Position numbers and translations under genes: made by a program. A stretch of 59,101 bases of DNA from Akkermansia sp. (GTDB taxonomy: Bacteria; Verrucomicrobiota; Verrucomicrobiia; Limisphaerales; SIBH01). Within the stretch, counting starts at the first letter, position 1; each line of letters opens with the position of its first letter. Positions 17,239 to 54,738 of the stretch are shown here, in pieces. The notes below the pieces were generated by a model. It made no database searches. It was given only the letters and a program-made list of their open reading frames with translations, and was not told the DNA's origin. The stretch covers positions 1-59,101 of the forward strand of contig JAYVQC010000168.1 in assembly GCA_043757045.1 (NCBI GenBank), read 5' to 3'.

Positions 17239-17379
17239 TCGGCGCTTGCGCCGCAGGTTAAAGTGTTCCTGAAAAAAGTTTTTCTTGTTTGACCCTTGAG
17301 CTTCGATTGAAGTACGCAACGTGACTCCGCACATCCAGTTGGCGCAACCAGGGCGCAAACTTGCGTGCGGAAGCGTGCG

Positions 17380-19176: not shown

Positions 19177-19177
19177 T

Positions 19178-21063: not shown

Positions 21064-21083
21064 CGTTTTGAAATAGCTTGAAA

Positions 21084-27804: not shown

Positions 27805-30800
27805 TGAACTCCGACGCCATTATGAAGAAGTTTTTCGCCGGATTGTTGCTGCTCGCACTCGGCGCCGCGACGGGACTTTCCGCCCCTGCCACCAGTCCGG
27901 CGGACATCTACGTCAACAATTCGCCCTTGACCACTCCGCCGCAAGTGGATGCAACCATTTTCCTGAACCGCAGCAGTTTTGACATCTCCACCACCCTCCC
28001 CTACACGGCTCAGAACGTGCGGTTTTGGACGAACACGGGAAGCATGGCCGGAACTCCGGGCTTTCGTTTTGAGAACAATCGGAGCGGCAATGCGGTCCCC
28101 AAAAAGACGAAGGCGAATTCGAGGAATCTTCAAGTCCCCTCGGCTACTTTCCATAACGATGGCAACGTTTATGGGGAGCAACTGCTCTGGATTAACGCCA
28201 ATTCCATTTTTACTTCTGGTCGTCTGGATGGTGGTGAAGCCGGGCGCATCGTCATTCAGGCAACAAATGGCACCGCAGATTTGAGTCGCAGCGGCATCCG
28301 CGTCGGACCGGTCACCGGGATTAACGTCCCGTGCGGTTTTGAAGCGTTCGGAACGAATTTCACCCCGGATCCAAATATCCGGGAACTTTATTGGGGCGCC
28401 GGACGGAACAATGCATTGGGAACCAATGGACAGCCCTTGAATTTGACGTCACTACCGTTTGCCAATGGCGGTAATTTCACATTGCCCTTTCCGCGCACGC
28501 CCAGTCATGAAGTCATTCAATTGTTTTCGGGTCGTCCGTTCACCAATCTGGTGAATCTGCCGCAAGGCTCGTTCTTCGGTGGGCTTTGCGGGACCAACTA
28601 CGACGCCTACGTCCATACCAACCTTGACTTTGCCGGGACGACTCCGCGAACAGTGGTGACCATTGTGTTCGTTCCCACACAAAGCCTTTTGTCTCCGGAC
28701 AATCTCCAGACGGAGGTTCGATTTGTCCCCGACTTCGGCCCTGGGGGCAGCACCTTTTCGCCGGTGGTGGAGTTTCACAACACTGCTTTTGATATTGTCG
28801 ATCAAGCGATGGTCACGAATTACGTCACTTTCATCGACACGACCGGGAGCCAGACCAATGTGGTGCTGGCCCGACCCTTCACTACAATTACAGGAACAAC
28901 GCCCAATACGCGGCGGCCTTCGACGCACACCTTTATTCGCGGACGGTATTGCAACTTTGATTTTTTTACGGAGGCGGCTAACGCCGTCTATGACCCGGCA
29001 GTCTTCTTTGCCCAGAACAATGTCACGAACATCGCCAACACTATTTACGCGGCTTCAGCGGCGCAAATCGGACTGACCAATGCTCAGTCATTTACCGCGA
29101 CAAGCCTCTCCCCGAGTGGCTTTTTGACACTGGGCGCCAACCCGGCTGTGACCGATCCAACCAACTTCACCGGCAAGGTAGAGATCACGGCCAAAGACCT
29201 CGACCTGACCCTCACGCGCATCAAGGCCGAGAATTTCATCTCGATCAAAGCCGGCAATTTGCGCAGCAATCTTGTCGCCCAGCTCGACGCGCCGTTCATT
29301 GATCTGAATTTGCAGTCCAGTAATGCCACCCTGATTATCAGCAACCTGGCCCCTTCTTCAGTGAATCGTCTGGCCGGCCAAATCGCCGCTTGGAGCAGCG
29401 CGTGGAATGTCAACGTGACCAACGTTCTCGGGCAGACGAACGCCATGCGCTTTCACGTTCTGCTCGTGGATAATTGTCTGCGCTCGGAGCAACCGGTGAC
29501 CATCAACCGTTTCTCGGTGAAAACCCCGCAACTCGTCCTCAGTGACAATCTTTTTGTGAACGCAGGTGCATTGGTGAATGCGCCCGCGATCACGGTGGAG
29601 CCAGGTGCTACCCTGGCCTTGCCGCTGCGCTCTGATTGGGCCTTCACCAACTTTCAAAACCTGCTCAACTTCACCAACAATGGCACCGTGAGCATTCAGG
29701 GCGGCGGCTACTTCGGAGCTTTTGATGTCGGACATATCACGATACCAAAAAAGAAAAGGGGGAAGAAACGCCCCGCTCCCGTGGTGCCGTTTCCGCTGAA
29801 CAACTTCGTTAACCGCGGTTCGCTTTCAGCCTCCGCGTTCTATGTTCGTGCCACCAACGCCGAAATTGCCGGGTCCGCTTTCACCCGCGCCCTGCTAAAC
29901 GGGAATAACGGAGTCATCGCTGTGACTGCCTCCGTGCTGTCGTTAAGCAATGCGGCGATTTCCGCAGGTTCTGATGCTGAGTTTCATGCCAATGACCTGC
30001 TCCTGACCCGCACGGTCCTTTCCACAGGCCGGACCAATCCCATCTTCGGCAATGTGATACCCGGTGCCTTGATCCTTGACGCAACGAATTCACTGACTGA
30101 TGGCGGCCTGAACGCGAGCAACCTCTGGAGCGTCACGGGCGGTTTCCGCATGGCCCGTCGTCCGGCCATGCCCGGCGATCTGCTGGGCACGCGGATCGAG
30201 TCGCGCTCGGGAAGCTTCGTGCAAAACACGCATCAATGGGCGGGCTTGGATCGCGGGAACACGAACGCGGGATACGTGAACAATCTGGCGCTGGGCCGGC
30301 TGGTGTTGGATGGCGTGCTGCTGAACCGCTTCCGTTTCACAGGGGCGAGCACGAACAACGCGCTGTATGTGGAATATCTGGAGCTGCGGACGAACGGGGT
30401 GCCCAGCAATTTCTCTGGAGACTTCATCGGCTCGTTCGCCATTGACCCCGGCTTCACGATCTATTTTGCGGACTCGAACATGGATCCCATTGTTCTGGCG
30501 GGGTTGGGTGGCGGACGGATCAAGTGGGTGAGCAGTTATGCCGGGGAGGAGGGTAGCCAGAGCGGCACGAACCTGCTTTATCCGAATGGCATCACCTACC
30601 GCTTCAACGCCGCCTTGGTGCGGAGCATGGAATTCGACACGGACGGCGACAACGTCCTGAACGGGCTGGATTGCACGCCCATTCCGGTGGCTGGTTTCGA
30701 CACCACCGGCCAGCAATGCCCTGCGCCTGCTCCGGCGGCTGCCGGTTTGGCGAAGGCGCTCGCCGCGTCAGACCTCCATTTGACCATCGCTCTCGCGGCC

Positions 30801-31004
30801 GAAGGCGGCGCGGTGGTGCTGGACTGGGATGCCCCCGCGAACTCCGCGAACACCGTCGAGTTCTCCGAGTCGCTTTCGGGCGGCGCGTGGCAGAGCCTGA
30901 CGAATTTTATCAACGGCCCGACAGGCACGCGAGTGACGGTGCGGGACGCGGCGGCAGCTCCGACCCGCGTTTATCGCGTCCGTGTGGACGCGGCCAAACT
31001 GTGA
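27804..31004 (+). CDS. Secreted beta-helix-like large protein (adhesin/passenger-like) with a C-terminal FYR-type domain
   Basis: 1066 aa. TGATG overlap with the upstream stop, with an alternative ATG at 27822 (MKKFFAGLLLLALGAATGLSA). Long Asn/Thr/Leu-rich irregular repeats such as LDLTLTRIKAENFISIKAGNL and LVLSDNLFVNAGALVNAPAITV. C-terminus: ...VVLDWDAPANSANTVEFSESLSGGAWQSL...TRVYRVRVDAAKL. Confidence 0.7.
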   Translation: MNSDAIMKKFFAGLLLLALGAATGLSAPATSPADIYVNNSPLTTPPQVDATIFLNRSSFDISTTLPYTAQNVRFWTNTGSMAGTPGFRFENNRSGNAVPKKTKANSRNLQVPSATFHNDGNVYGEQLLWINANSIFTSGRLDGGEAGRIVIQATNGTADLSRSGIRVGPVTGINVPCGFEAFGTNFTPDPNIRELYWGAGRNNALGTNGQPLNLTSLPFANGGNFTLPFPRTPSHEVIQLFSGRPFTNLVNLPQGSFFGGLCGTNYDAYVHTNLDFAGTTPRTVVTIVFVPTQSLLSPDNLQTEVRFVPDFGPGGSTFSPVVEFHNTAFDIVDQAMVTNYVTFIDTTGSQTNVVLARPFTTITGTTPNTRRPSTHTFIRGRYCNFDFFTEAANAVYDPAVFFAQNNVTNIANTIYAASAAQIGLTNAQSFTATSLSPSGFLTLGANPAVTDPTNFTGKVEITAKDLDLTLTRIKAENFISIKAGNLRSNLVAQLDAPFIDLNLQSSNATLIISNLAPSSVNRLAGQIAAWSSAWNVNVTNVLGQTNAMRFHVLLVDNCLRSEQPVTINRFSVKTPQLVLSDNLFVNAGALVNAPAITVEPGATLALPLRSDWAFTNFQNLLNFTNNGTVSIQGGGYFGAFDVGHITIPKKKRGKKRPAPVVPFPLNNFVNRGSLSASAFYVRATNAEIAGSAFTRALLNGNNGVIAVTASVLSLSNAAISAGSDAEFHANDLLLTRTVLSTGRTNPIFGNVIPGALILDATNSLTDGGLNASNLWSVTGGFRMARRPAMPGDLLGTRIESRSGSFVQNTHQWAGLDRGNTNAGYVNNLALGRLVLDGVLLNRFRFTGASTNNALYVEYLELRTNGVPSNFSGDFIGSFAIDPGFTIYFADSNMDPIVLAGLGGGRIKWVSSYAGEEGSQSGTNLLYPNGITYRFNAALVRSMEFDTDGDNVLNGLDCTPIPVAGFDTTGQQCPAPAPAAAGLAKALAASDLHLTIALAAEGGAVVLDWDAPANSANTVEFSESLSGGAWQSLTNFINGPTGTRVTVRDAAAAPTRVYRVRVDAAKL

Positions 31005-31126
31005 GGCCTGCTCCGGCCGCCCGCAGATCGTGCCCTGGCTGTTGAACCCAAACCGCGAAGACGGACGCTGAGGCGAATGATCACTCGCCCCGGTTCCACC
31101 TTCGCAAACTGGACGAACGCATTCAC

Positions 31127-34100
31127 ATGAAACTGTTTCGTTGGCTCACGGCGGGAGTGCTGGTGATTCTTTTGGCCGCGCTGGTTCTTTCGAGGACCGG
31201 TCGAGTCCGTCCGTCCTCATCGCCTTCATCGCCCGCCGTGGCCCCGGTCGCCGGGGAGGTGGCGCGAACTGCCGCGCCCGCGTCTGCGGGCGCACCCGTC
31301 ACCGCCCCCTTGGTTTCCAACCCGTCCGTGGGCGTGCCGGTTTCCAGCGCGTTTGAAAATTGGGCGCGCACCTTCGTGAAGGGCGATGCGTCACAGCGCG
31401 CGGCGTTGTTGGAAAAGGTCGCCGAAGTCGCAACCACGCGGCGTCAGGAGATGGCGGCCTTGATTCGCGCGAATCCTGAAGCGGCGTTGCGCCGCGCGCT
31501 GCCTTGGTCACTCCGTCAGCAGTTGCCCACGGAAGTGCTTTTGCAAATCGAACAGCCGGTGAGCGCGCGCGGCCTGTTCCGTCCCGTCTGCTACAAGCCG
31601 TTCCACACCGGCCAGGATGAGGCGCATGATCTCGGCTACGAAGTCATCATCAACGGCACGCGCTACGAGACCTACACGTACGGCGCGCGCCTCCAGCAGC
31701 CGACCCACGACAGCGCCTATCTCCACGGCGTCTCGGTCAAGGAAGATTTGTCGCAAGGGCCGGAACTGCTCGCGTTAAGCGATGAGGTGACGCGGCTGAT
31801 CAGCGACGCGTCGGAGAAGCAGGCACTCGTGGACGCGAAGCAAGTGCGGGGCGACGCGGGCTGCGATGTGGCGGGCCGAACCATCGTGCAGTTCGGCGAC
31901 CAGTATTACGGCTACTGCGATCCCTCGCAGGCCGAGCAAATGGCGCAGATGCTCCAGGCCGCGCACGGGATGCTCTGGGGTTCGGGCGCGAAGAATCACG
32001 CGACCGAGACTCTGCCCATCGAAGGTTTCAGCGGCACCCAGGGCATCAAGAAGCTGCTCTACATCCGCGTGCTGTTTGCGGACGACCCGGTGCCGCCGCA
32101 GTCCGACAACGGCGCGCAGGCCACGGCCCAGGCGAACAACCGTTATTTTTACGAAGGCTCCTACGGCACGGTCTGGTGGGAATCCACCATTACCCCGTTG
32201 GTGCGGCTGCCGCAGCGGAAGAATTTTTACGGCGAGAATCCCGGACGGCTGCTCAGTGACGCGGCGGCGGGCGCGGCGTTGCTCGGCTATTTCACGAGCG
32301 ACTACTTCTCTCCGCATTACGTGCTGCACAATACGCTGGTGCAGTACTCGTTTGGCGGCCTGTCCAGCGGCATCCTGAACGCCTCGCCCGGCGCGCTCAC
32401 CCACGAGCTGGGGCATAACTTCGGATTGCCGCACGCGAACTTGTGGACCGCCGAGGGCACGCTGCCCGGCCCGGTCCAGCCGCAGAACGCCCCGCCGTGG
32501 CCCATCGATCCTGACAGCCTGATCGGCCATTACGATCTCAACGCGCCGGCCATTCCCGGTTTGAACACCCAGCAGCCCGTGTTGTCATACGGCAACCAGC
32601 ACGACGTGATGGGCAGCGGCGGCGGACACTTCAGCGCCATGTTCAAGAACGCGATGGACTGGCTGCCCGATCCGTTCATCAAGCGCATCACCGGCAGCAC
32701 CACCAACCGCATCTACGCCTTCGACACGCCGCGCATCGACACCGGACGGCTCTATGCCATGCGGATGCGCAAGGACGTCCGCCGCGAATACTGGTTCACC
32801 TTCCGCCAGGCTTTCCCGGACAATCCGTGGTTCTCGAACGGTCTCGAAGTGGACTGGAACATCGGGCCGGAGAATCCCGGTTACAGCGTCGCGCTCGGGA
32901 ACAACGTGCTGATCGACACCACGCCCGACACGACCTACGGCAAGGAGGACGCCGCGCTCATCGTGGGACGCACGCTCCACGATCCGCAGGCCAGCCTGCA
33001 CGTCACGCCCATCGCCGTCGGCGGCGGGCCGGACGCCTCGGACAAATGGATCGACGTGGTCGTGCAGATTGGCCCCTTCCCCGATAACCAGATTCCCACG
33101 CTCGCCCTCGCGGCCAGTTCGCTCACCGTCGCCACCGGCGCGGTGATCAACTTCACCGCCACCGCGCAGGACGCGGACGGCGACGCGCTGGCTTATAACT
33201 GGGATTTCGGCGACTGGACCTTCGGCCCCAATGCGCCGCTGGCCAGCAAGCAGTTCAACGCGCCCGGCCAGTTCGTGGTGCGTTGCGAGATTTCCGACAT
33301 GAAGGGCGGCGTGGCCAGCCGGCACCTGGTCATCACCGTCGGCAATCCCGGCACCTACACCATCAGCGGGCGCGTGCTCGACACGGATGGCAATCCCCTG
33401 CAAGGCGTGCGCGTGCATAACAGCGGCGTGAAGCCGGCCGATGCGCCGCCCGTGCCCGAGGGCACCTCGACGAACGCCTTCATCACCGACGTGGGCACCT
33501 ATCGCTACGGCTACACGGACACCGACGGCTACTACGTGATCGGGAACAATCCGCCGGATGATTACGTGGTGCGCGCGTTCCTCTTCGGCTACAGCACCGT
33601 GCCGCTGAATTTCACCGACCCGGTCAATGTCAGCAACGGCAACGCCAGCGGCATTGATTTCACCGCCACGAAGATCGCGCGCGTGCGGGTCGCGCGGACG
33701 CTCGATGCGTTTGAACTCGGCGGGGAGGGCAATGACGGCGTGTTCACCATTTCGCGCGAGGGCGGCGATTTCGCGCAGGATCTGCCGGTGCGTTTCGGCT
33801 TGAGCGGATCGGCGAGATACCTGGTGAATTACACCGTTACCGGCGCGGACACGTCGCAGACCAACTGCACGTTCACGACCAACGGCAACGTTATCACCAC
33901 CAACTGCGTCAGCACCAATGTCGCCCTCGGCCAGGTCATCATCCCGGCCTTCCAGTCCTCCATCGATGTCCATGTCGTGCCCGTTGATAACGCCGTGGGG
34001 GATGGCGACAAGACCGTGGTGATGACGCTGGCGCTCCAGACGAATTTTTTCCGCATCCGCACTGAGGTCACAAATTTCTTCATCACCAATGGCACGGCCA

Positions 34101-40297: not shown

Positions 40298-40330
40298 ACG
40301 GGGCGGACGGAAATTTTTTAGGATTTGAAT

Positions 40331-46300: not shown

Positions 46301-49300
46301 CGCCGCTTCGGCACGGCGGGCGAGGCGCGCGTGGACGCCTACACCTTGGGCGGCACGGCGTTGCCCGGTGTGGATTACACGGGCGTGACCAATCAGTTGA
46401 TTTTCCTCGAGGGCGAAACGCGCCGGAGCCTGACCATTCCAATTTTGCCGAACACCACGCCGAACGACGACAAGACCGTGGGCCTGTATCTCGCGAACTT
46501 CATCAACGCCCAGCAAGGCCCGCAGCCGTTGTCCACGCTGATCATCGTGGATGATGATCCGACGATTGCTTTCAGCTCGGCGAATTATTCCGAGAACGAA
46601 AACACCGTCAGCGGCAACGCCACCATCACGCTCACCCGCGCGGGCGGCACCAACGCCACGCTCACCGTGGACATCGCCACCATCGCCGGCGGCACGGCCA
46701 CGGCAGGGCTGGATTATCTCGTGACGAACGCCACGCTCACCTTTGGGCCCGGCGTGACCAGCCGCCTGTTCAATGTCCGGCTCGTCAATGACCTCCTCCT
46801 CGAAGGCAACGAGACCGTGCTGCTCGCGCTCTCCAACCCCGGCGGCGGCGCGACACTCGGCCTGGCGAACGCCTCCTTGAACATCGTGGACGACGAGGTG
46901 CCGAACGGCCAGTTCGCCTTCGCGACGAACAATTTCCTGGTGGACGAATCCGTCGGCGTGGTCGGCGTGAAAATCATTCGCACCAACGGTTCCGTCGGCA
47001 TCGTCTCGGTCAGGCTCACGACCAGCAACATCACCGCGTTGGCCGGTTCTGATTACACCCCGACGAACCGCGTCGTGACCTTCGCCGACGGCGAGACGAA
47101 CAAGACCGTCTTCATCAGCATCATCAACGACGGCGTGGCCGAGCCGGACGAGACCGTGCTGCTCACGCTCTCCGCCCCCACGGGCGGCGCGACCATCTCG
47201 CAGACGAACGCGATCATCACCATCGCCGACGACGAGGTCGTGCCGAGCTACGTGCTCTTCGCGACGAATAATTTCTACTTCAGCGAAGACGGCGGCGTGG
47301 CGGTCATCACCGTTGTCCGCACGAACAGCCGGCGCGGTTTCCTGACCGTGGACTTCTCCGTGAGCAATGGCACCGCGCTGAACGGCGTGGATTACTTCGG
47401 GACCAACGGCACGCTCACCTTCGTGGATGGCGTCAACGAACAGACCTTCACCATCCCCGTCGTGAACGACACGGAAGGCGAGGGCGATGAGACCGTGCGC
47501 CTCAGCCTGACCAACTTGCAGGGGACCAACAGTTCGCTCGTCGGCCCGACCTCGACGCTGACCATCGTGGATGACGACACGGCCTTCCGTTTCTCCTCAG
47601 CCACTTACTCGGTGGCGGAGAACGCGGGCAATGCGGTCATCACCGTGCAACGCGTGGGCCGCACGAACACGGCGGTGTCCGTCAGTTACGCCACCGCACT
47701 GGGTGGGACGGCGCTCGGTGGCGTGGATTATATCCCGGTGTCGGGCGTTCTGAACTGGGCGGCGGGCGACGGCGCGCCGCAAACCTTCAGCGTGCCGGTG
47801 ATCGACAACAACATCCTCAACGCTGCGAAGACGGTGCAGTTGGTTCTGAGCAATCCGACGGGCGTGGCGACTTATCTTGGCGGTGCGTCGAACGCGGTGC
47901 TGACCATCACGGATGACGAGACGGTGGCCCCGCTGGCCGGGCCGGTGGACCCGCTCTTCAATGACAACTTTGGCGCGAAAGGTTCCGTGCGCGCGGTGGC
48001 CTTCGATTCTTTGCAACGCCTCTATGTGGGCGGCGACTTCACCCAGTTCCACGGGCTGGCCGTGAACCGCATCACCCGCCTGACCGCCAATGGCGCGGTG
48101 GACTTCAGCTTCCAGGTGGGCGCGGGCGCGAACGGCGCGGTGCAGGCCATCGCCCCGGTCACGAATGGCGTGCTCATCGCCGGCGCGTTCACGAACGTGA
48201 ACGGCGTGGCGCGCGGGCGCGTGGCCCGGCTGTTGTTGGACGGTTCGGTGGACGCCACGTTTGCCCCGCTCCTCGGTGCGAACAATGTGATCCGCGCGCT
48301 GGCGGCGATGACGAACGGACAGATTCTCATCGGCGGCGACTTTACGAGTTACGCTGGAATCGCCGCCCCGCGCCTCGCGCGCTTGAACGCCGATGGCACG
48401 CGGGACCTGGCCTTCATCCTCGGCTCGGGTCCGAACGCGCTGGTGCGCGCGGTGGGCGTGCAGACGAACGGGCAGATTTTGATCGCCGGTGATTTCACCA
48501 GCTACAACGGATTCCTCGTCACGCGGCTCGCGCGGTTGAACGCCGACGGCTCGCTGGACACCACCTTCAACACCGGACTCGGCGCGGATGGCGCGGTCCA
48601 CAGCATCGCCGTCGGACCCGATGGGAAGATCATCATCGGCGGCGAGTTCCTCACCATCAACGGCTCGCCTCGCGATCATGTCGCCCGTCTGCACGCGGAC
48701 GGTTCCGTGGACACCGGCTTTGACATCGGGCTGGGCACGCTGGCCCCCGTCCGCGCCGTGGCGGTGGAACGTGACGGGCACGTCCTCGTGGTGGGCGACT
48801 TCGGGACCTTTAATGGCAATCCGTCGTCTGGGGTCGCGCGTTTGAATCCTGACGGTTCCTTGGACGCCGGTTTCAACGTGGGCAGCGGGGCCGATGCGCC
48901 GGTTCATGCCATCAGTCTCGTGACCCGCTGCGTGCCGCCGCCGGTGGCCGTGATGACGTTTGACCCGTTGTCGGCCAATTTCGCGGCTCAGACGGATTAC
49001 GCGGAGAACTGCCTGACCCTGCGCGGCCTGACTGGCGGCCATTTCCATCCCACCCCCAACGGAGCGGGGACGGGGGCGGAAATTTTCGGCGTGGATGGCA
49101 CGCCGCAGGAACTCAGCCTGAACGGCTTCGCCTTCACGCTGCAAAGTGTCACTGTGACCAATCTCTCCGGGGTCGTGACGGCGACCTCCTCAAGCGGCGG
49201 CACCGTGCAACTGACGAACGGCGTGACCACTTTCGGCGCGGGCTTTGTGGACGTGGTCTGGGTCCGTTTTGACCTGGACGCGGGCGCAGTAGTGATCCTC

Positions 49301-52300
49301 GATGATGTGACGGTGATTCCTGGAATTGACGCGCTCGTGCCGCAGACCTTTGCCATTGGCGGCGACTTCGAGAAGTTCAACCAAGTCCAGCGCGGCGGTG
49401 TGGTCGTGCTGGCCAGCAGCGGGCTGGCCTCCGTGCAGTTTGATCCTCGGAACATCGCCACGCGCGCCGTTTATACGTCGGCCATCTTCACGAATGCGGC
49501 CTTGCCCGCCTACACCGGGAAGCTGGCGGTCGGCGGCGACTTCACCGCCATCGTCGGCGTGGAAGGCGTGAACCATCTCGCCCGGCTGAACATTGACGGC
49601 ACGCTCGACACGACGTTCAACAGCGGCCTCGGCCCGAACGGCACGGTGCGCGCGGTCGCGGCGCAGCCGGACGGCAAGATTGTCTTCGGCGGTCTGTTCA
49701 CCTCGTATGATTTCATCGCCCGCGCCTACCTCGGTCGCGCGAATGCGGACGGCACGCTCGACAACACCTTCAACTTCGGCGCGGGCCTCGACAACGGCGT
49801 GCTCGCGCTGGCCCTGCAACCCGACGGGCGCATCGTCATCGGCGGTCTCTTCTCGACGGTCTATGGCGTATCGCGCAACGGCGTGGCGCGGATGAACACG
49901 AACGGTACGGTGGACGTGAGCTTCACGGTCGGCTCCGGCGCGAACGGCCCGGTGCGCGCCGTGGCGTTGCAGCCGGACGGCAAGATTCTTATCGGCGGCG
50001 ACTTCACCACCTACAACGGCGCGCCGCGCGCCCGCATCGCCCGGTTGAACAACAACGGTTCGCTCGATACTTCGTTCAACCCCGGGACCGGGGCGGACGG
50101 CACGGTGAACGCCATTGCGCTCACGAGCGGCGGGCAGGTGCTCATCGGCGGCTTCAATGGCGCGCCGGCTCCTCGCATCGCGCGGCTGACCGCTGCGGGC
50201 GCGGTGGACGGCACGTTCACTCCCGGCACGGGCGCGAACGATTACGTGAGTTCCATCGCGGTGCAGACGGACGGGCAGGTCGTGGTGGGCGGCAACTTCA
50301 CCACCTTCAACGGCCAGGTGCGCCAGCGGCTCGTCCGCCTGAACGCGAACGGTACGCTGGACCCGACGATCAACTTCGGCGGGGGCGCGAATGATTTCAT
50401 CAGCACGATCACGCTGCAACATTACGACGGCAAGATCGTGGTCGGCGGCGGCTTCACGGAATTCGACGGCCAGACGCGCGTGGCCATCGCCCGGCTCATG
50501 GTCGGCACAAACAGCGGCGCGGGCACGTTCCGTTTCAGCTCGCCGGTCTTCTCGGTCAACGAGCGCGGCAGCAACGCCGTGCTCACCGTGGTGCGCTCCG
50601 GCGGCACCACGGGCGCGGCCTCGGTGAATTACCAGACGGTCAACGGCACGGCCCTGGCCCCGGCGGATTACACCGCGACCAGCGGCACGCTGAACTTCGC
50701 CAACGCGGAGAGCATGAAACAAATCCTCGTGCCGGTGAATGACAATACCGTCGCCAGCTTTGACCGCCTCTTCATCGTGTCGCTCTCCGGCGCGACCGGC
50801 GGCGCGACGATTGGCGCTCCGAGCAACGCGGTGGTCACGATTCTGGAAAATGAGAGCACGTTCAACTTCGGCGCGGTGAACTACCAGGTGGCTGAAAACG
50901 GCGTGGTCGCACGCATCACGGTCACGCGCACGGGCGGGTTGCTCGACATGGCCACGGTGGATTTTGTCACGGACACGAACGGCACGGCCACGGCCGGACT
51001 CGACTTCACGGCCCGCGCCGGGACGCTCACCTTCCTGCCCGGCGTCAGTTCGCGCTCCTTCGATGTCACGATTTTCGATGACACGGTCAACGAATTCAAC
51101 GAGACGGTGCCGCTGCGGCTCACGCTGCCGGTGGGCGCGTCGCTCGGGCTGTCGAACGCCACGCTCACGATTGTGGAGAACGACTTCGGCGCGGGCGTGA
51201 TCACCTTCCGCGCGGCGGCTTACACGGGCAGCGAGGACGGCGGCGGCATCGTCGTCGAACTGTTGCGCACGAACGGCTACAGCGGCGGTGTGACCGTCGG
51301 CTACCGGACGCTGACCGGCTCGGCCACGGCGAACGTGGATTACCTGGCGACGAACGGCCTCGTGTCGTTTGTGGACGGCCAGACCAACGCCTTCATCACG
51401 ATTTACCCGCTGGATGATGTGCTGACCGAGGGCAACGAGACCGTGCCGGTGCAGCTCTTCAACCCGAGCGCCGGGGCCACGCTCGGACTTGCGAACGCCA
51501 CGGTGACCATTGTGGATAATGATTCGCCCGGCCAGTTCGTCTTCAGTTCGCCGACCTACACGGTGAGTGAAGTCGGCGGCAGCGCGACCATCACCGTGCT
51601 ACGCACCAACGGCAATCTCGGCGCGGTCAGCGTGACGGCCCAAACCAGCGGCGGCAGCGCGACGCCTTCGGCGGATTACCAGAGTGTGTCCACGGTGCTG
51701 AACTTCGCGGCGGGCCAGTCGCTCCGCACTTTCACGGTCCCGATCTTTGATGACGTGGCGCCGGAAGGTGTTGAGACCGTCGGCCTCTTGCTCTCGAATC
51801 CGACGGGCGGCACGTCGATCGGCGCGCTCGGCTCGGCGGTGCTTTCCATCGTGGATAACGAGGCGTCGGTCGGTCTGGCGTCGGCGGCGTTGAGCGTGCT
51901 GGAAGGCGCGACGAATTTCCCGGTCACCCTGGTGCGCCTCGGCGATCCGAACGTGAGCTTCTCCGTGACCTTGAACACGAGCGACGGCTCGGCCACGGCG
52001 GGCTCGGATTACCAGGCCACCCGCACGACGGTGACGTTTGCCGCCGGTGAGACCAATCGCGTCGTCTCCGTCGCCATTTTGGATGACGCGCTCGCAGAAG
52101 GTAATGAGACGGTGAACCTCACGCTCTCCAGTCCGTCGGCCGGTGTGGGCCTCGGGCCGATCCTCTCTGGCACGTTGACGATTCTCGACAACGACACGGG
52201 CTTCAGTTTCAGCTCGGCGACGTACGCGACGAACGAAGGCACGCTGGATTTGATCATCACCGTGCGCCGGCTCGGCTCGGTCGCGGGGGTGGCCTCGGTG

Positions 52301-54655
52301 GATTACCTGACCACGGACGGCACGGCCACAGCGGGTCTGGATTATCTCACGAGCACGGGACGGCTGGCCTTCGCCGCGGGGCAGACCAGCGGCCTGTTCA
52401 ATGTCCGCATCCTGGACGACGTGCTCGTGGAGAACAACGAGACCATTCTGCTCGCGCTGGCCAATCCTTCGGCGGGGACGTTCCTGGGCGCGCAGCCCAC
52501 AGCGGTCATCTCCATTCTCGACAACGACACCAGCGTGGGCCTCTCGCCGACGGCGTACGCGGTGAACGAGAAGGTGACGAACGCTGTCATCACGCTCGTG
52601 CGCAACGGTGCTCCGGGGCAGGCCGTCACGGTCGGTTTCCGCACGCAGAACGGCACGGCCACGGCGGGCGTTGATTACACCTTCACCACGCAGACGGTGG
52701 CGTGGGCCGCCAACGACATCGCGCCGAAGACAGTCTTGATTCCGATCACAGACGACGGGCTGGCCGAAGGCACGGAGACGGTGACGTTGATTCTCTCCGG
52801 CGCGCTGGGCGCGACGATTGATCCGGCGGCGGCCTCCGGTGTGTTGAGCATCATTGACGACGCGGGCGTGATTGCCTTCGCGGCGGCGAACTCCAGCGCG
52901 GTGGAAAGCTCGGGCGACGCGGTCATCAACCTCGTCCGCACCGGCGGATCGAGCGGAGTTGTCAGTGTGCAATGGAACGCCACGGGCGGCAGCGCCACGG
53001 CGGGCGCGGATTACTCCAGCACTTCTGGCTTCGTGGTCTTCGCCAACAACGAAACGGTGAAGCCCATTCTCTTCCCGATTGTGGACGACGCCTCGGTGGA
53101 AGGCATCGAGACGGTCAACCTCACGCTCTCGAACCCGACCGGCGGCGCGCGCGTGGGCAGTCCGGCCTCGGCGGTGCTTTCGATTCTCGACAACGACAGC
53201 GGCGTCATCGTCGGCGCAGGAGCCTCGCTCATCGCGGAAAGTTTCGCGCCCACGAACAACATCATTGATCCGAACGAGACGGTGACGCTGCTCTTCGGAT
53301 TGCGGAACAGCGGCACGGTCAACGCGGCGAACGTCACGGCCGGACTGGTCTATGCAAACGGCGTGACGAACAGCGCTCCGCAGACGCAGAGCTACGGCCT
53401 GCTCAGCGCGGGCGGCAGCACCGTCTCGCGTCCGTTCACCTTCACCGCGCTCGGCTCGAACGGCACGCGCATCACGGCCACGTTGCTCGTCACGAACGAC
53501 GGTGTGTTCTTCGGCCCGGTGTCCTTCGACTTCGTGCTCGGCATCCAGAGCGTGGCGTTTGCGAACGCCGGGGCCATCACCATTCCGGCCTTCGGACAGG
53601 CCGCACCGTATCCGGCGCCCATCACGGTTTCCGGTGTGTCCGGCCCCATCACCAAAATCACGGTCAGCCTGAACAACATTCATCACACGCAGCCGGGCCA
53701 GATGGACATCCTCCTGGTCGGACCCAACGGCACGGCGGTGATGCTGATGTCGGACGCGGGTACCAACATCCTGATGAATGGCGTGAGCATCACCTTTGAC
53801 GACGCGGCGGCGGCGGTCCTCCCGCAATTCAGCGGGATCACGTCCGGCACCTACCGTTGCACCAACTACCCGCCGGTGGCCGATTCCTTCAATCCGCCTT
53901 TCGCGGTGGGCAGCGCCTTCTGGACGAACACGCCGGCCTTGAGCGCCTTCAATGGCACGGACGCCAACGGCGTCTGGTCGCTCTACGTGGTGGATGACAG
54001 CGTGGGCGACAACGGCGACATCGCCGGCGGCTGGTCGTTGAACATCGGCACGGCGAACATCGTGGCGCCGGGCGCGGACCTTGCGGTGCTGGTCACCGAT
54101 TCGCCGGACCCGGTGCAGACCAACAGCACCTTCACCTACACCATTGGCGTGACGAACTTCGGCCCGGCCACGGCCACGGCGATCACGCTCACCAACGTGC
54201 TGCCCTCGGCCGCCAGCTTTGTCAGCGTGGCCGGACCCGGCGTTTACACCCTCAACGGCAACGAGGTGCGCGGCACCCTCGGCGATCTGGCCGCCGGTGC
54301 GGGCACCGTGGTGAACATCACCATGACGGCCCAAAACATGACCGGCCAGTTGACCTTCACCACGACCGTCGCCTCCGGCACCGCCGACCCGAATGCGCTG
54401 AACAACCTGGCCTCGATCAAGACCACGGTGGTTGACAGCGTGCCGCTGCCGCTGCTCTTCGCCGCGCGCAAGAACGGCCAGCTCGTGCTGAGCTGGCAAA
54501 GCACCACGCCGAACGTGGCGCTTGAAGCCGTGACTTTGCTCGGCGGCAGCTGGGCGAACGCGCCGGTGACGCCGGTGGTGAGCAACGGCGTGAGTACCGT
54601 GACCCTGCCGATGGACAGCGGCGGGAAATTTTACCGGCTCAAACGGACGCCGTGA
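40331..54655 (+). CDS. Giant secreted protein (~4774 aa): N-terminal ANDNF-type beta-sandwich, ~20 Calx-beta units, four 7-repeat delta-60 arrays, C-terminal CARDB-like + P-domain + DUF11-like + FYR-type domain
   Basis: ORF 40325 (TTG)..54655, with ATG at 40331. Signal-like RGWLRVALLAVVAGLVPAAALA, then QPANDNFTNAFVL...TVQTGEP...SVWFRWVAP. P-domain-like ...GTDANGVWSLYVVDDSVGDNGDIAGGWSLNI. DUF11-like ADLAVLVTDSPDPVQTNSTFTYTIGVTNFGPATATAITLTNVLP. The protein ends ...GGKFYRLKRTP. Confidence 0.85.
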   Translation: MSSNLERRSDHPRARAGWRGWLRVALLAVVAGLVPAAALAQPANDNFTNAFVLVGTAGTTNGTTLNATVQTGEPFHFSSYRARSVWFRWVAPDSGPVTFDLIGSTFDTIMAAYRGSALGGLTQLASDDDSATVSPYPFDSQITFTALAGTEYRIAVDGFAAASGSYVLNWSQVVCTNVPPGPTEIQFSCVDYAVSESSPGFATVKVVAGGAFPGTVTVDYFTTDGTALVPGDYLSVSNTLTFAPGETNKTFTIIINDNTFQNPNKTVNLTLANPTGGATLGLSSNAVLTIVDDESTPVVSMAGQFNFSMPVYNVTENETVRAPFANAPPSNNGPNRSPFGAVVMVTRTGGAVGRVMVDVNVLSTNRFGTNVTTNTLTQTLVFDDYQMSATFLVSIPQVGNSIINLVLTNARPDVLEDPAIIIPTIGTARSSISVLGVNVGSIYSIERKTYRIDEYDPADPFNTLGLPGQNNSIQFDVLNPSGQSGNVTISTRANLYGYFILDSSDYPESQTRLLPETPYTDGFPGITNLVDYITFSQTLNFGQGVTRIPVTLVVTNDPTVEFNEDIQLQLTNPDNNHTIGNALANVTIMYDDQPAGQADREWNPELISTTQPPFNNTPGANNTVSAVAVQVDGRTILVGDFTAVNSVSRFRIARMNSDGSLDLTFNPGSGADGFVEALALYPASAAVGTNAGKILVAGGFSSINNVSRNGLARLNPNGSLDNSFFVGNGADGFVHTLTLQSDGKVLVSGDFTHWNDMPVAGLMRLNQDGSLDTTFSAGLGPDSTIWSVAVRDAAGTIFAPRTAAGTDFEDVNVIETGSEQGTLVVNYDFLNIPDNIRVFYEGIQIFNLTTNGAGQLTIPYGPGLATDITIIMNQGIGLPGTVWFYTARVTPVVTGRTIFIGGDFTSYDGSVRPGVARLLDNGSIDNGFNPGLGVDGSGSVFAVAIQPDNKLLVGGAFTRFHTSARNSIVRLLKDGSIDPNHHVGTGFNDSVYCITLAPDNKPLLGGIFQEYNSTRRMGLARLLTSGSLDTSFMDTAYNQFSGLTKTYSFDPPRYVNSIALQSDGNLMIGGSFTNVGGNFSVRHGLRNNYTVFTRADKTTRYNITRLIGGYTPGPGNMEFAPSAFPFTIDEGAGIFYATMRRVDGRLGTAQIIATNSSVTASTPDDFINEGLLQTWPEFAYVAPRSVGYVGFNYFAIPITEDVLQEGDETFSVGAVNPTGSITLGGEFIPLGGARGFYDGSTVTVADNDFSHGVFNFHLSAYITNENAGFAIITVIRTNGSSGAVSVDYLTRPGTPSPATTNLDFTPVRGTLSFSPGQTVRTFQVPIVNDALVEFDENVALILTNATGGAKLPGGTPTSIATATLTIIDNDFLQGRLNFSASSFTNNENETFATITVSRTGGNVGAMTVQVRTANGTAFAPADYTATTNTLFWNDGDSAAKSFIIPLVSDGLVEGSEIVNLILYNPAINGALGGRTNATLVIVDGDNFGALTLSQSLYEVDENGTAPVITVNRVGGIAGTVSVSFATSPLPATPSTDYLNNSGTLTFFPGETSHTFVVTNLDDLVPGGDQIVIITLSNPVNGTLGAISNATLTFVDNELINLPAGSVDTTFSGLAAANEAVYALALQPDGGILMAGDFTIVNSVPRNRIARLLGTGLLDETFNIGPGANGSIRALALQNNGRLVVGGLFTTINSTNRNHIARLGTDGSLDAFFNPGAGADNPVYALAIQGDDKILAGGSFSTFNGITRPGVVRLNTNGAVDLNFNPGAGVDGTVYALAVQADGKILLGGEFTSFNGVARTNLLRLNANGTLDGTFNPGFSIDAGVRSIVVQPDTRLLIGGSFTNVNGVTRRGLARLLASGALDATFLNGLGGADSTVLAVKLQIDGKILVAGDFRRFNNVTRSGLTRLRADGTTDPAINFGDGANAFVAALLVQPDRRIIIGGGFTEYDGQPRAHLARIYGGSIDGSGSLEYSAQLFTVGESAGSAIVTVRRRFGTAGEARVDAYTLGGTALPGVDYTGVTNQLIFLEGETRRSLTIPILPNTTPNDDKTVGLYLANFINAQQGPQPLSTLIIVDDDPTIAFSSANYSENENTVSGNATITLTRAGGTNATLTVDIATIAGGTATAGLDYLVTNATLTFGPGVTSRLFNVRLVNDLLLEGNETVLLALSNPGGGATLGLANASLNIVDDEVPNGQFAFATNNFLVDESVGVVGVKIIRTNGSVGIVSVRLTTSNITALAGSDYTPTNRVVTFADGETNKTVFISIINDGVAEPDETVLLTLSAPTGGATISQTNAIITIADDEVVPSYVLFATNNFYFSEDGGVAVITVVRTNSRRGFLTVDFSVSNGTALNGVDYFGTNGTLTFVDGVNEQTFTIPVVNDTEGEGDETVRLSLTNLQGTNSSLVGPTSTLTIVDDDTAFRFSSATYSVAENAGNAVITVQRVGRTNTAVSVSYATALGGTALGGVDYIPVSGVLNWAAGDGAPQTFSVPVIDNNILNAAKTVQLVLSNPTGVATYLGGASNAVLTITDDETVAPLAGPVDPLFNDNFGAKGSVRAVAFDSLQRLYVGGDFTQFHGLAVNRITRLTANGAVDFSFQVGAGANGAVQAIAPVTNGVLIAGAFTNVNGVARGRVARLLLDGSVDATFAPLLGANNVIRALAAMTNGQILIGGDFTSYAGIAAPRLARLNADGTRDLAFILGSGPNALVRAVGVQTNGQILIAGDFTSYNGFLVTRLARLNADGSLDTTFNTGLGADGAVHSIAVGPDGKIIIGGEFLTINGSPRDHVARLHADGSVDTGFDIGLGTLAPVRAVAVERDGHVLVVGDFGTFNGNPSSGVARLNPDGSLDAGFNVGSGADAPVHAISLVTRCVPPPVAVMTFDPLSANFAAQTDYAENCLTLRGLTGGHFHPTPNGAGTGAEIFGVDGTPQELSLNGFAFTLQSVTVTNLSGVVTATSSSGGTVQLTNGVTTFGAGFVDVVWVRFDLDAGAVVILDDVTVIPGIDALVPQTFAIGGDFEKFNQVQRGGVVVLASSGLASVQFDPRNIATRAVYTSAIFTNAALPAYTGKLAVGGDFTAIVGVEGVNHLARLNIDGTLDTTFNSGLGPNGTVRAVAAQPDGKIVFGGLFTSYDFIARAYLGRANADGTLDNTFNFGAGLDNGVLALALQPDGRIVIGGLFSTVYGVSRNGVARMNTNGTVDVSFTVGSGANGPVRAVALQPDGKILIGGDFTTYNGAPRARIARLNNNGSLDTSFNPGTGADGTVNAIALTSGGQVLIGGFNGAPAPRIARLTAAGAVDGTFTPGTGANDYVSSIAVQTDGQVVVGGNFTTFNGQVRQRLVRLNANGTLDPTINFGGGANDFISTITLQHYDGKIVVGGGFTEFDGQTRVAIARLMVGTNSGAGTFRFSSPVFSVNERGSNAVLTVVRSGGTTGAASVNYQTVNGTALAPADYTATSGTLNFANAESMKQILVPVNDNTVASFDRLFIVSLSGATGGATIGAPSNAVVTILENESTFNFGAVNYQVAENGVVARITVTRTGGLLDMATVDFVTDTNGTATAGLDFTARAGTLTFLPGVSSRSFDVTIFDDTVNEFNETVPLRLTLPVGASLGLSNATLTIVENDFGAGVITFRAAAYTGSEDGGGIVVELLRTNGYSGGVTVGYRTLTGSATANVDYLATNGLVSFVDGQTNAFITIYPLDDVLTEGNETVPVQLFNPSAGATLGLANATVTIVDNDSPGQFVFSSPTYTVSEVGGSATITVLRTNGNLGAVSVTAQTSGGSATPSADYQSVSTVLNFAAGQSLRTFTVPIFDDVAPEGVETVGLLLSNPTGGTSIGALGSAVLSIVDNEASVGLASAALSVLEGATNFPVTLVRLGDPNVSFSVTLNTSDGSATAGSDYQATRTTVTFAAGETNRVVSVAILDDALAEGNETVNLTLSSPSAGVGLGPILSGTLTILDNDTGFSFSSATYATNEGTLDLIITVRRLGSVAGVASVDYLTTDGTATAGLDYLTSTGRLAFAAGQTSGLFNVRILDDVLVENNETILLALANPSAGTFLGAQPTAVISILDNDTSVGLSPTAYAVNEKVTNAVITLVRNGAPGQAVTVGFRTQNGTATAGVDYTFTTQTVAWAANDIAPKTVLIPITDDGLAEGTETVTLILSGALGATIDPAAASGVLSIIDDAGVIAFAAANSSAVESSGDAVINLVRTGGSSGVVSVQWNATGGSATAGADYSSTSGFVVFANNETVKPILFPIVDDASVEGIETVNLTLSNPTGGARVGSPASAVLSILDNDSGVIVGAGASLIAESFAPTNNIIDPNETVTLLFGLRNSGTVNAANVTAGLVYANGVTNSAPQTQSYGLLSAGGSTVSRPFTFTALGSNGTRITATLLVTNDGVFFGPVSFDFVLGIQSVAFANAGAITIPAFGQAAPYPAPITVSGVSGPITKITVSLNNIHHTQPGQMDILLVGPNGTAVMLMSDAGTNILMNGVSITFDDAAAAVLPQFSGITSGTYRCTNYPPVADSFNPPFAVGSAFWTNTPALSAFNGTDANGVWSLYVVDDSVGDNGDIAGGWSLNIGTANIVAPGADLAVLVTDSPDPVQTNSTFTYTIGVTNFGPATATAITLTNVLPSAASFVSVAGPGVYTLNGNEVRGTLGDLAAGAGTVVNITMTAQNMTGQLTFTTTVASGTADPNALNNLASIKTTVVDSVPLPLLFAARKNGQLVLSWQSTTPNVALEAVTLLGGSWANAPVTPVVSNGVSTVTLPMDSGGKFYRLKRTP
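42122..43655 (+). repeat. Delta-60 array, 7 repeats, with a ~100-aa insertion (about 42715-43015) inside repeat 4
   Basis: Blocks with VSAVAVQVDG, FVEALALYPAS, FVHTLTLQSDG, TIWSVAVRDAAG [insert], VFAVAIQPDN, VYCITLAPDN, VNSIALQSDG. Confidence 0.7.
45137..46215 (+). repeat. Delta-60 array, 7 repeats
   Basis: Blocks with VYALALQPDG, IRALALQNNG, VYALAIQGDD, VYALAVQADG, VRSIVVQPDT, VLAVKLQIDG, VAALLVQPDR. Confidence 0.75.
47938..50505 (+). repeat. Two consecutive 7-repeat delta-60 arrays, separated or interrupted by a ~138-aa non-repeat insertion at 48923-49338
   Basis: Array 3 blocks: VRAVAFDSLQ, VQAIAPVTNG, IRALAAMTNG, VRAVGVQTNG, VHSIAVGPDG, VRAVAVERDG, VHAISLV. Array 4 blocks: VYTSAIFTNA, VRAVAAQPDG, VLALALQPDG, VRAVALQPDG, VNAIALTSGG, VSSIAVQTDG, ISTITLQHYDG. 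Confidence 0.7.
50506..53195 (+). repeat. Array of 8 well-conserved Calx-beta units; other sets at ~40880-42120 (3, two degenerate), 43680-45136 (4) and 46216-47937 (5)
   Basis: By-eye count of units of the form F(S/A)...Y.V.E......(I/L)TV.R.GG..G...V.Y.T..G(T/S)A.AG.DY....G.L.F..G......(V/I)P(I/V).DD...E..E.(V/F).L.L(S/T). Confidence 0.7.
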
Positions 54656-54685
54656 GTCCGGCCGAAGACAGTTTGAAAAAATCTC

Positions 54686-54722
54686 GCGGGGCGCGGGCGG
54701 AAGAACTCCACCGCGCTCCCGC
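54686..54722 (+). terminator. GC-rich intergenic hairpin between the 4774-aa gene and the M36 gene; no U-tract, so at best a weak terminator or processing signal
   Basis: gcggggcgcgg (54686-54696) pairs with ccgcgc(t)cccgc (54711-54722). The stem is 11 bp with one bulged T and a 14-nt loop. Confidence 0.2.
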
Positions 54723-54738
54723 ATTCAGATGAAGTGAT

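Follow-up and report, generated by a model that had tools for sequence, protein, structure and literature searches.

A C-terminal FYR tail domain on exported proteins of Verrucomicrobiota, a candidate sorting or anchoring handle

Three neighbouring genes in the window, the whole stretch of 59,101 nucleotides analysed here, encode large proteins whose ends look alike, raising the question of whether these ends are copies of one domain and what such a domain would do at the end of proteins that otherwise differ. All three carrier genes lie on the + strand. The first (27804..31004) encodes a 1066-aa protein with a Sec signal peptide and no Pfam or NCBIfam domain; the second (31127..40297) a 3056-aa protein with PKD, CarboxypepD_reg, 9 Calx-beta and DUF5122/delta-60 repeats; and the third (40325..54655) a 4776-aa protein with 18 Calx-beta and 25 DUF5122 repeats, a P-domain, and DUF11. 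Signal peptides or signal-peptide-like N-termini were found on all three products. The tails quoted in an earlier note on this DNA are indeed the C-termini of these open reading frames. The domain copies, hereafter FYR tails, occupy 30774..31001 (ending ...TRVYRVRVDAAKL-stop), 40088..40294 (ending ...NRFYRARRFGP-stop), and 54455..54652 (a divergent subtype, ending ...GKFYRLKRTP-stop), all on the + strand, and the distances from the domain end to the stop codon are 6, 4, and 4 residues, respectively (family criterion 2 to 8). The coordinates given earlier for the third copy, 54442-54655, are one base out of frame and should read 54413/54443-54655.

Similarity between pairs of tails was weak in BLASTP (E = 0.002 to 0.09), and the by-eye alignment of the three tails is therefore not significant alone. 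We built an HMM from the three tails and iterated it over all six-frame ORFs of the 4.9-Mb genome, where it converged on 118 domains in 117 ORFs; the reversed-sequence control gave 0 matches at E ≤ 0.1. Among called genes, 113 carry the domain, corresponding to 3.1% of the genes and 10.1% of the proteome residues, and of the 65 proteins with 1500 aa or more, 38 do so. An HMM from which the window had been left out recovered tail 1 (E = 2.2e-7, with the alignment stopping 6 aa short of the stop codon) and tail 2 (E = 6.9e-11). Tail 3 matched the main profile weakly (E = 1.4e-3 with the leave-out model and 0.1 to 0.3 with the converged one), but a profile of its orthologues (A3, 26 tails) aligned with the main family (A1) in hhalign with a probability of 97.5% and E = 4.9e-12. 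Tails 1 and 2 are thus clear members of the family, and tail 3 represents a divergent subtype that its orthologues link to the others. Together, the convergence of the profile, the reversed control, and the leave-out matches bear out the proposal that the tails belong to one domain family, tail 3 being the divergent one of the three.

The domain ends no more than 12 aa from the stop codon in 114 of the 118 copies, compared to 4.0 expected under uniform placement. In a sample of foreign genomes, picked by motif (a DNA pattern for QRFYRVR) and not by position, approximately 50 of the 55 domains in 47 loci were terminal, and 121 of 147 arrays in multi-copy proteins ended at the C-terminus. The position had been called strictly C-terminal, and this needs qualification: the great majority of copies are terminal, but there are tandem arrays of 2 to 22 copies, some of them cargo-less, a few internal copies (C135, C218, and C29), and a few N-terminal ones (the 9454 gene of the window and a CCP_MauG protein). 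Such mixed positions would not be expected of a pure secretion signal. The top-scoring database proteins also hold many internal copies. These internal copies and the weak BLASTP scores would suit a chance likeness, or a generic FN3/Ig repeat whose position carries no meaning. We tested this explanation and rejected it as extremely improbable, given the empty reversed-sequence search, the recovery of tails 1 and 2 by the leave-out profile, the strength of the positional bias, the statistical support for the alignment, and the lack of any match to Pfam fn3.

All 41 homologues of the 1066-aa protein, down to 28% identity, keep the tail at the extreme C-terminus, and no other part of the protein is as well conserved (identity 0.61 in the tail versus 0.49 elsewhere). 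Replacement of the tail by a PEP-CTERM signal was looked for within this family and not seen, every homologue having kept the tail. The earlier note had also pointed to a related segment, lacking the FYR end, in the 9454 gene. This proved to be a genuine relative in shortened form. The segment lies at 9514..9693 (+ strand), immediately behind the signal peptide (9454-9513) in a 505-aa protein with TSP3 repeats, and matched the HMM with E = 1.6e-6 (1.3e-3 with the leave-out model) over profile positions 2-45/51 or 2-52, the RFYR strand being absent. It is kept in 10 of 12 homologues.

The family consensus reads l.W....G..Y.lE.S.dL..W..l......f.D......RFYRv..(x)P-stop. From structure models, the FYR tail is predicted to be an Ig/FN3-like beta-sandwich of 55 to 66 residues and six strands, ending in RFYR-x4-5-P-stop. 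The AlphaFold2 model of copy 2 (window positions 39998-40294) has a pLDDT above 90 over residues 31-99, with six strands, a short helix, and RFYRAR as the last strand; that of copy 3 (mean pLDDT 84) is likewise a beta-sandwich, with KFYRLK as the last strand. Both appear to stop directly after the FYR-bearing strand F, with no G strand. Of 103 tails, 71 have four or five residues behind FYR, and 58 have Pro as the final residue, compared to a background of 10%. Pro also follows the internal copies of tandem arrays, so the terminal Pro may only mark the end of a strand instead of forming part of a recognised free C-terminus. F50, Y51, and R52 reach 3.8 to 4.0 bits each, suggesting that the last strand forms a conserved interface; since successive residues of a strand point to alternate sides, one or more of the three must face outwards. 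The region of the C-C' loop (N/D18, L19, and W24) is also among the best-conserved parts. Pfam and NCBIfam gave no match for the three tails or for 101 family members, and Foldseek searches of both models against the PDB returned generic Ig/FN3 neighbours only, none with E < 0.01. The family is therefore uncatalogued, with no domain-library model and no close solved structure. At the profile level, we obtained a partial match to discoidin/CBM32-type domains (Paenibacillus glucanase, 2rv9/4zxe, residues 56-106; E = 2.4e-5) and a match to the Fn3-like protein 3mpc (E = 0.01), the latter being the only sequence link to FN3.

The proteins that carry the tail are diverse and mostly exported. In the window's genome, the domain caps approximately 115 different exported enzymes and adhesin-like proteins, including a PL7 lyase, GHL10, NAGPA, Kelch-repeat proteins, an alkaline phosphatase, a phosphodiesterase/sulfatase, and the Calx-beta giants; some are small single-domain enzymes of 400 to 800 aa. 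A crude signal-peptide test was positive for 75% of the carriers compared to 37% of other proteins (odds ratio 5, p = 8e-14). The earlier observation of a C-terminal domain on otherwise unrelated architectures is thus supported, for proteins with signal peptides. In the window's own order, 40 of 41 genomes have the tail, in 2 to more than 146 copies (median 59); G318 of that order lacks it, G347 is also among the genomes with none or few copies, and an Akkermansia-like genus is free of tails. Across Verrucomicrobiota it was found in 74 of 201 genomes and in Planctomycetota in 2 of 101, and public data hold approximately 98,000 representative clusters of the family at 50% identity.

Many of these cargoes act on polysaccharides, and this, together with the discoidin/CBM32-type and Fn3-like profile matches, could indicate that the tail is a CBM-like, glycan-binding module tying enzymes and adhesins to a substrate or to an exopolysaccharide matrix made by the cell itself, for which avidity binding by tandem arrays would be well suited. 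We consider it improbable. At E ≤ 1, Pfam recognised neither F5_F8_type_C (PF00754; discoidin, CBM32) nor any CBM model in the 101 members, and the profile match to 2rv9 and 4zxe covers only part of the jelly-roll. The tail is also carried by an alkaline phosphatase, a phosphodiesterase, and a protein without any other recognised domain, and its conserved residues appear to resemble those of a core or strand pair instead of an aromatic binding platform. Moreover, characterised CBMs are not, to our knowledge, restricted to the last residues of a protein.

What other phyla place at the same position was examined with homologues of the C-terminal region of the third carrier protein (giant-3). FYR tails end 59 of these 88 homologues. 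In others, from other phyla, the C-terminal slot holds an LPXTG anchor (TIGR01167 above cut-off), and in one a T9SS type-B domain (TIGR04131, 54 bits; PF13585, 85 bits). These homologues show that the slot of the FYR tail is equivalent to that of known sorting signals. C-terminal slots can hold ordinary binding domains too, and some homologues end instead in a discoidin-like segment (...SYRVTFPTLR...AEVDL.G), judged by eye and without a Pfam match.

Searches around the carriers returned no candidate for a partner. No gene family was enriched beside the 113 carrier genes and no neighbour family recurred across the 47 foreign loci. The analysis yielded no partner, receptor, peptidase, or translocon. 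Upstream of the carriers in the window lies a pilus-type cluster (17365..23843, + strand), identified by Pfam hits. It comprises PilM, a gene of the Amuc_1100 family, an ORF of 274 aa, and a TPR-secretin, and its synteny, including Amuc_1100 (PF28028), is conserved in L121-L123. Co-occurrence of the tail with this secretin cluster had been raised as a possible sign of dedicated machinery; 16 of 20 domain-free genomes possess a secretin with this architecture, and the cluster is accordingly not specific to the domain. A missing partner is what would be expected if the tail carried no address information and served purely to cap long strings of beta domains or to nucleate their folding, possibly being cleaved after export like PPC. 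Its predicted small, stable sandwich fold and its occurrence behind many sorts of beta-rich repeats are compatible with such a role. However, single-domain enzymes of 400 to 800 aa are capped as well and would have no need of it, about 115 unrelated architectures would all have had to retain the same cap, which in one family would have to be better conserved than any other part, and sorting signals fill the same slot in other phyla. We regard a purely structural role as quite improbable, more so than glycan binding.

A GspD-type secretin (TIGR02517, best E ≤ 1e-55) was present in 24 of 24 carrier genomes tested, compared to 8 of 22 in which tails are absent or almost so (Fisher p = 1.3e-6). 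This association, together with cargoes that are typical exoenzymes, would fit a tail that acts as a type II export signal by offering GspC/GspD a conserved loop or edge. PelI and Pel3 provide a precedent: loop 3 of their Fn3 domain, which lies between strands C and C', serves as a signal for the T2SS and touches GspC and GspD (PMC7949064). The corresponding loop region is highly conserved in the FYR tail, and Foldseek paired our model with the Pel3 Fn3 domain (4u49) at a probability of 0.98 and an rmsd of 3.1 over 65 columns, but with E = 0.2. Several observations argue against this explanation. The association with GspD is phylogenetically weak because 10 of the 14 GspD-free genomes belong to one genus, and the 8 genomes that have GspD with no or almost no tails indicate that the GspD pathway does not need the tail. 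Tandem and cargo-less arrays and the strict terminal position would be left unexplained, the Fn3 domain of PelI being N-terminal. Folded proteins of 3000 to 5800 aa exceed the known T2SS cargoes by far, and we know of none near that size. In addition, pilin-like genes do not lie beside carriers (1 of 106 downstream, 1 of 104 upstream, and 3 of 47 foreign loci). Type II export by this route appears about as improbable as glycan binding.

Our favoured reading, to which we give a probability of roughly 0.55, is that the FYR tail serves as a handle for sorting or anchoring. A tailed protein would first be exported by Sec; the folded tail would then be recognised by one common envelope component, and many unrelated cargoes would so be delivered to and kept at the cell surface. 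The data show the family with its fold class, positional bias, cargo diversity, phyletic range, and equivalence of slot, whereas any step of recognition, docking, cleavage, or export is inferred. With regard to how the handle would act, we tentatively prefer that the tail docks non-covalently to, or is retained by, one surface receptor or polymer shared by the cargoes, because tandem and cargo-less arrays exist; a signal for export across the outer membrane, through a GspD-type type II system or another translocon, seems rather unlikely. In its most specific form, which is somewhat doubtful, the proposal would make the tail the cargo tag of an undescribed post-Sec sorting pathway of Verrucomicrobiota, with one envelope receptor or translocon serving up to about 150 different enzymes and giant adhesins per genome that are delivered to the surface and held there, a counterpart of the T9SS CTD with a different fold and machinery. 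The tag would then present a conserved, exposed patch formed by the C-C' loop together with the last strand (E14, F50, and R52), perhaps with an open strand edge, and the pathway might feed into a GspD-type secretin. A literature search for a described Verrucomicrobial C-terminal domain returned nothing relevant, in keeping with the earlier statement that no characterised sorting system is known for the tail, and the searchable literature contained no experimental localisation or processing data for tailed proteins.

The consequences would be broad. Proteins with one unnamed domain make up about a tenth of the proteome by residues, among them most of the largest proteins and many enzymes of nutrient acquisition, and the domain occurs almost throughout a large order of Verrucomicrobiota from soil and freshwater. 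If the tail is a sorting or anchoring tag, it would define the surface proteome of an abundant and poorly studied phylum, indicate an unknown outer-membrane pathway, give annotators a simple marker of exported proteins, and provide a handle for surface display in these bacteria. A curated domain model is deserved even if the role is merely structural.

Among known systems, the earlier note had likened the tail to PEP-CTERM signals and to the T9SS CTD, and had set it against a generic FN3/Ig family. FN3/Ig domains appear to be of the same fold class and are its Foldseek neighbours, and the order of its motifs is FN3-like, with a W on strand B, a Y on strand C, and, on strand F, an aromatic FY resembling a tyrosine corner. 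However, none of the 101 members matches Pfam fn3 (PF00041) at E ≤ 1, the Ig/FN3-like FYR models appear to end after strand F of the seven FN3 strands (A, B, C, C', E, F, and G), and FN3 domains lack a terminal bias. Dockerins, which serve docking, and PPC domains, which are removed after export, are also common C-terminal modules of many different secreted enzymes; the FYR tail has no calcium-loop repeats or detectable cohesin-like partner, in contrast to the former, and no Pfam match to PF04151, in contrast to the latter. LPXTG/sortase and PEP-CTERM/exosortase signals likewise sit at the very end of surface proteins, and homologues of giant-3 of the Actinobacteria type have LPXTG where Verrucomicrobial ones have the FYR tail. 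These signals consist of a short motif, a transmembrane helix, and a basic tail, whereas the FYR tail is predicted to be a folded, soluble domain; its sequences contain no hydrophobic helix and match neither TIGR02595 nor TIGR01167 of NCBIfam, and the genome has its own PEP-CTERM-like set of at least 11 small proteins, none with an FYR tail. The T9SS CTD, which is removed by PorU, with attachment to anionic LPS, comes as type A (Por_Secre_tail, PF18962/TIGR04183) and type B (CHU_C, PF13585/TIGR04131). The three tails and 101 members match neither T9SS model at E ≤ 1, and PF18962 had 0 matches in the whole genome in a search run without a positive control. SprA (TIGR04189; positive controls, 2900 bits in Maribacter and 1676 bits in Rhodothermales) is absent from the window's genome (G000) and four other carrier genomes. 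The FYR tail also differs in its six predicted strands, motif set, and phylum, and it forms tandem arrays, which we do not know of for T9SS domains. In both systems, a small beta-sandwich stands at the extreme C-terminus of unrelated enzymes and adhesins exported by Sec, which number from dozens up to hundreds in a genome and have no conserved neighbouring gene, and in one homologue of giant-3 the type-B domain occupies the very slot of the FYR tail.

The window corresponds to the entire contig C168 of a draft genome that comprises 4.9 Mb at 62% GC. The three largest complete ORFs of this contig, all on the forward strand at 27804-31004 (1066 aa), 31127-40297 (3056 aa), and 40325-54655 (4776 aa), carry at their C-termini tails 1, 2, and 3, respectively. 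An earlier note had aligned these tails by eye; the coordinate pair it assigned to tail 3 (54442-54655) is shifted out of frame by a single base, although the peptide it quotes is the right one. Pairwise BLASTP between the tails was weak (E 0.002-0.09), and the by-eye alignment is therefore not significant alone. A family profile seeded with the three tails was iterated over all six-frame genome ORFs of at least 60 aa; by the fourth round it had converged, with 118 domains in 117 ORFs. No reversed ORF matched at E ≤ 0.1. A profile built without any window sequence recovered tail 2 (E 7e-11) and tail 1 (E 2e-7), and these results together bear out the proposal of a single family. An independent search of the same genome with an alignment of 101 main-family members (A1) gave 121 matches at E ≤ 1e-5. 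For tail 3, the E-value was only 1.4e-3 against the leave-out profile and rose to 0.1-0.3 against the converged one. Its subtype (..KNGQLVLSWQ...NVVLES...W...PVVSNGVSTVTVP..G.KF[FY]RLKRVP) is common to its orthologues, which are 4.5-4.9-kaa Calx-beta/DUF5122 proteins, and many of their tails score 1e-4 to 4e-6. A profile of 26 tails of this subtype matched the main family in hhalign with a probability of 97.5% (E 4.9e-12, 65 columns). A1 includes tail 3 among its 101 rows, which makes this comparison slightly circular. Overall, tail 3 belongs to the family as a divergent member. The giant genes also contain long antisense ORFs (37160-41860, 42782-46516, and 51599-54724, reverse strand; up to 1566 aa), which are probably not genes but shadow frames of repetitive, GC-rich coding sequence. 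Downstream, at 54739-59100, lies a gene for an M36 fungalysin-type metallopeptidase with a P-domain and DUF11 repeats, which leaves the contig at its 3' end.

Across the genome, 114 of the 118 domains finish no more than 12 aa before the stop, compared to 4.0 expected under uniform placement along the carriers, so the C-terminal bias suspected for three proteins holds genome-wide. In a crude call of 3597 genes, 113 (3.1%) bear the domain and make up 10.1% of all residues, and the tail is present on 38/65 proteins of at least 1500 aa. By a crude test, 75% of carriers have a signal peptide, a share that falls to 37% among non-carriers of at least 300 aa (OR 5; p = 8e-14); the earlier note had proposed to test for such an enrichment. 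The passengers are mutually unrelated, as had been noted for the window, and range from the repeats of the giants (PKD, Calx-beta, DUF5122, DUF11) to single enzymes; they include a PL7 alginate lyase with Ig domains, GHL10 with Golvesin_C, NAGPA, Kelch repeats, an alkaline phosphatase, a phosphodiesterase/sulfatase, and the 1066-aa protein, with no known domain. The few non-terminal exceptions are two proteins of contig C135 in which further domains follow the tail, a degenerate tandem pair (C203), weak internal copies (C218 and C29), and two N-terminal copies, on a di-haem peroxidase (C176) and on the 9454 gene of the window. In the former, a cytochrome c peroxidase (CCP_MauG; 335-1729, reverse strand), a weak FYR-type domain (E 8e-4) directly follows the signal peptide and ends KNFYRVFHDP, reversing the usual order. 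The latter (9454-10968) encodes a conserved 505-aa family with a signal peptide, a truncated FYR-like domain lacking the last strand, a Gly/Ser-rich linker, TSP3 calcium repeats, and, towards the C-terminus, a hydrophobic stretch and a conserved Cys pair (...DD.CDPA.DVA.W...YLCP). Its segment had been described as a relative without the FYR end, and it indeed matches profile positions 2-45/51 only, has no RFYR strand, and is kept in 10 of 12 homologues.

The core of the domain spans 53-57 profile positions, or 66 including the first strand. Conservation is highest at W24 (6.2 bits), followed by F50 (4.0), Y51 and R52 (3.8 each), Y11 (3.7), W/F at position 3 (2.6), E/Q at 14 (2.4), L19 (2.3), and G8 (2.2). 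For tail 2, AlphaFold2 predicted six strands and a short helix (pLDDT above 90 throughout the domain), and for tail 3, from its separate alignment, a similar sandwich (mean pLDDT 84); the FYR-bearing strand ends the chain in both models. F50, Y51, and R52 share a single strand and are all highly conserved, so that one or more of them must point outwards, which hints at a candidate conserved interface. Four or five residues follow FYR in 71/103 tails, and Pro is the last residue in 58/103, compared to a 10% background. Because Pro also follows the internal copies of tandem arrays, it probably marks the strand end, the proteins just stopping at the domain boundary. Foldseek against the PDB returned only generic Ig/FN3-like neighbours (Ptr ToxA, Pel3 Fn3, SiiE, the FN3 domains of IL-12Rb1 and IFNAR1, and Tencon), none at E < 0.01, and a profile search of PDB sequences gave a weak match to the Fn3-like protein 3mpc (E 0.01). 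A chance resemblance or generic FN3 repeat was put to the test and rejected, and we hold it to be extremely improbable. No Pfam-A or NCBIfam model matched the family members, which places the tail outside the catalogued FN3/Ig families. The PDB-sequence search also gave a weak match that covers just the central region of discoidin/CBM32 domains (2rv9, E 2.4e-5); that the tail is a glycan- or matrix-binding module appears unlikely to us.

In the family of the 1066-aa protein, the tail is retained at the very C-terminus by all 41 homologues, the most distant of them at 28% identity. No other 66-residue block of the protein is as well conserved (average identity to the window protein 0.61 vs 0.49 elsewhere). 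That the tail is a structural cap or a cleaved pro-domain is an explanation that we consider improbable. The last 377 residues of giant 3, the product of 40325-54655 (P-domain, DUF11, and tail), have 88 homologues in long proteins, of which 59 end in the FYR tail (E ≤ 1e-3) and several more in visibly related variants. Homologues of the Gram-positive type end in LPXTG: P0285 and P0282 score above the TIGR01167 cut-off, and in P0216 and P0266 an LPVSG motif precedes a helix and a basic tail. The last domain of P0284 is a T9SS type-B sorting domain (TIGR04131, 54 bits; PF13585, 85 bits), and a few homologues show, by eye and with no Pfam match, a discoidin-like end. Homologous surface proteins thus end in the sorting signal of their own lineage and those of Verrucomicrobiota in the FYR tail, which is comparative evidence for a candidate sorting or anchoring role and falls short of proof. 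Seven P-domain homologues (P0210, P0211, P0219, P0220, P0222, P0230, and P0241), one P-domain protein with this ending being labelled Verrucomicrobiales, carry a further variant (...TVTW..GG.LE.A.S..GPW..TGNTSG....(Y/F)(Y/F)R(V/I)(R/K)(R/K)-stop) that lies below the profile threshold and looks related.

In protein databases clustered at 50% identity, the profile matched 98,082 representatives at E ≤ 1e-3, of which 7,885 also passed E ≤ 1e-10. The 150 best-scoring are multi-copy proteins, because the score sums over copies; 147 of these were re-detected, with the last copy within 12 aa of the C-terminus in 121, and some are small proteins made almost entirely of repeats. Scanning genome contigs for a QRFYRVR DNA pattern gave 120 loci, 47 with a profile-confirmed domain and about 50 of 55 domains there terminal. 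These 47 are labelled Verrucomicrobiota (Limisphaerales, Pedosphaera, Limisphaera, Prosthecobacter, and others), except for one "uncultured bacterium" and four MAGs labelled Bifidobacterium. The latter (L015, L018, L059, and L097) are "uncultured Bifidobacterium/Bifidobacteriaceae" binchicken TPA assemblies; two checked genome-wide (G206 and G207) measure 5.2 and 7.5 Mb with 95 and at least 148 copies, look Verrucomicrobial, and are almost certainly mislabelled. The domain was found in 40/41 sampled genomes of the window's own order (2 to >146 copies, median 59), 74/201 of the phylum Verrucomicrobiota, 2/101 Planctomycetota (a single match each), and 0/8 from other phyla. Copy number increases with genome size in the order (Spearman 0.52), and one well-sampled small-genome genus of the phylum has zero copies. 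In two small genomes of the order (G318 and G347; 2.6 and 3.0 Mb), the count falls to 0 and 2 tails, compared to dozens in relatives; both retain GspD-like secretins.

The earlier note had proposed testing for co-occurrence with machinery genes such as the secretin cluster, which lies upstream of the carrier genes. This pilus-type cluster (17365-23843) comprises PilM, an Amuc_1100-family gene (19178-20242), a 274-aa ORF, and a 921-aa secretin with N-terminal TPRs, and a PilT-like ATPase is also counted in it; orthologues of the Amuc_1100-like ORF carry PF28028, and the window ORF itself had no match in the Pfam search. Synteny between the cluster and the carrier genes is kept in orthologous metagenome loci; a 5'-3' exonuclease gene and two unknown genes separate the two. 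The same-architecture secretin occurs in 15/15 genomes with the domain and in 16/20 without it (p = 0.12); the cluster is therefore general to the phylum, and we rejected it as dedicated machinery. Between cluster and carriers, 24719-27804 encodes two exported proteins (534 and 494 aa) of no Pfam family, the former with propeller-blade-like "GG(F/A)V(V/I)(V/A)W" repeats; their ORFs overlap each other and the first carrier gene, in what looks like an operon, and lie directly upstream of the carrier genes also in L121-L124. No neighbouring gene family was enriched in the own genome or recurrent over the 47 foreign loci, and no pilin-like genes adjoined the carriers as a pattern in either set. 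All 24 carrier genomes examined encode a secretin of the GspD type (TIGR02517, best E ≤ 1e-55), compared to 8/22 genomes that have hardly any tails or none (Fisher p = 1.3e-6). Since 10 of the 14 GspD-less genomes belong to one genus and GspD also occurs without tails, type II dependence is compatible with these data, not demonstrated. A precedent has been published: in the PelI/Pel3 Fn3 domain, loop 3 (betaC-betaC') is a type II secretion recruitment signal (PMC7949064).

The analysis establishes the domain family, its fold class, C-terminal bias, varied exported cargo, phyletic range, and slot equivalence; the function is inferred. We put at roughly 55% the probability that the FYR tail is a shared sorting or anchoring handle. 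Within this reading we tentatively prefer docking or retention on a common envelope partner, which is possible, since tandem and near cargo-less arrays would suit avidity binding better than a one-per-protein export signal; a role as export signal is doubtful.

No description of the tail was found in the literature searched. The tail belongs to neither the PEP-CTERM nor the LPXTG signal type, and at least 11 small PEP-CTERM-like proteins of this genome carry none. It is FN3-like in fold, but has no fn3 profile match and its models lack the G strand. Functionally it is closest to the T9SS C-terminal domain, but it falls outside that class by profile and by translocon, SprA being absent from this and four other carrier genomes and present in two Bacteroidota/Rhodothermota controls. 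The FYR tail is thus a candidate C-terminal beta-sandwich sorting or anchoring domain in a new phylum.
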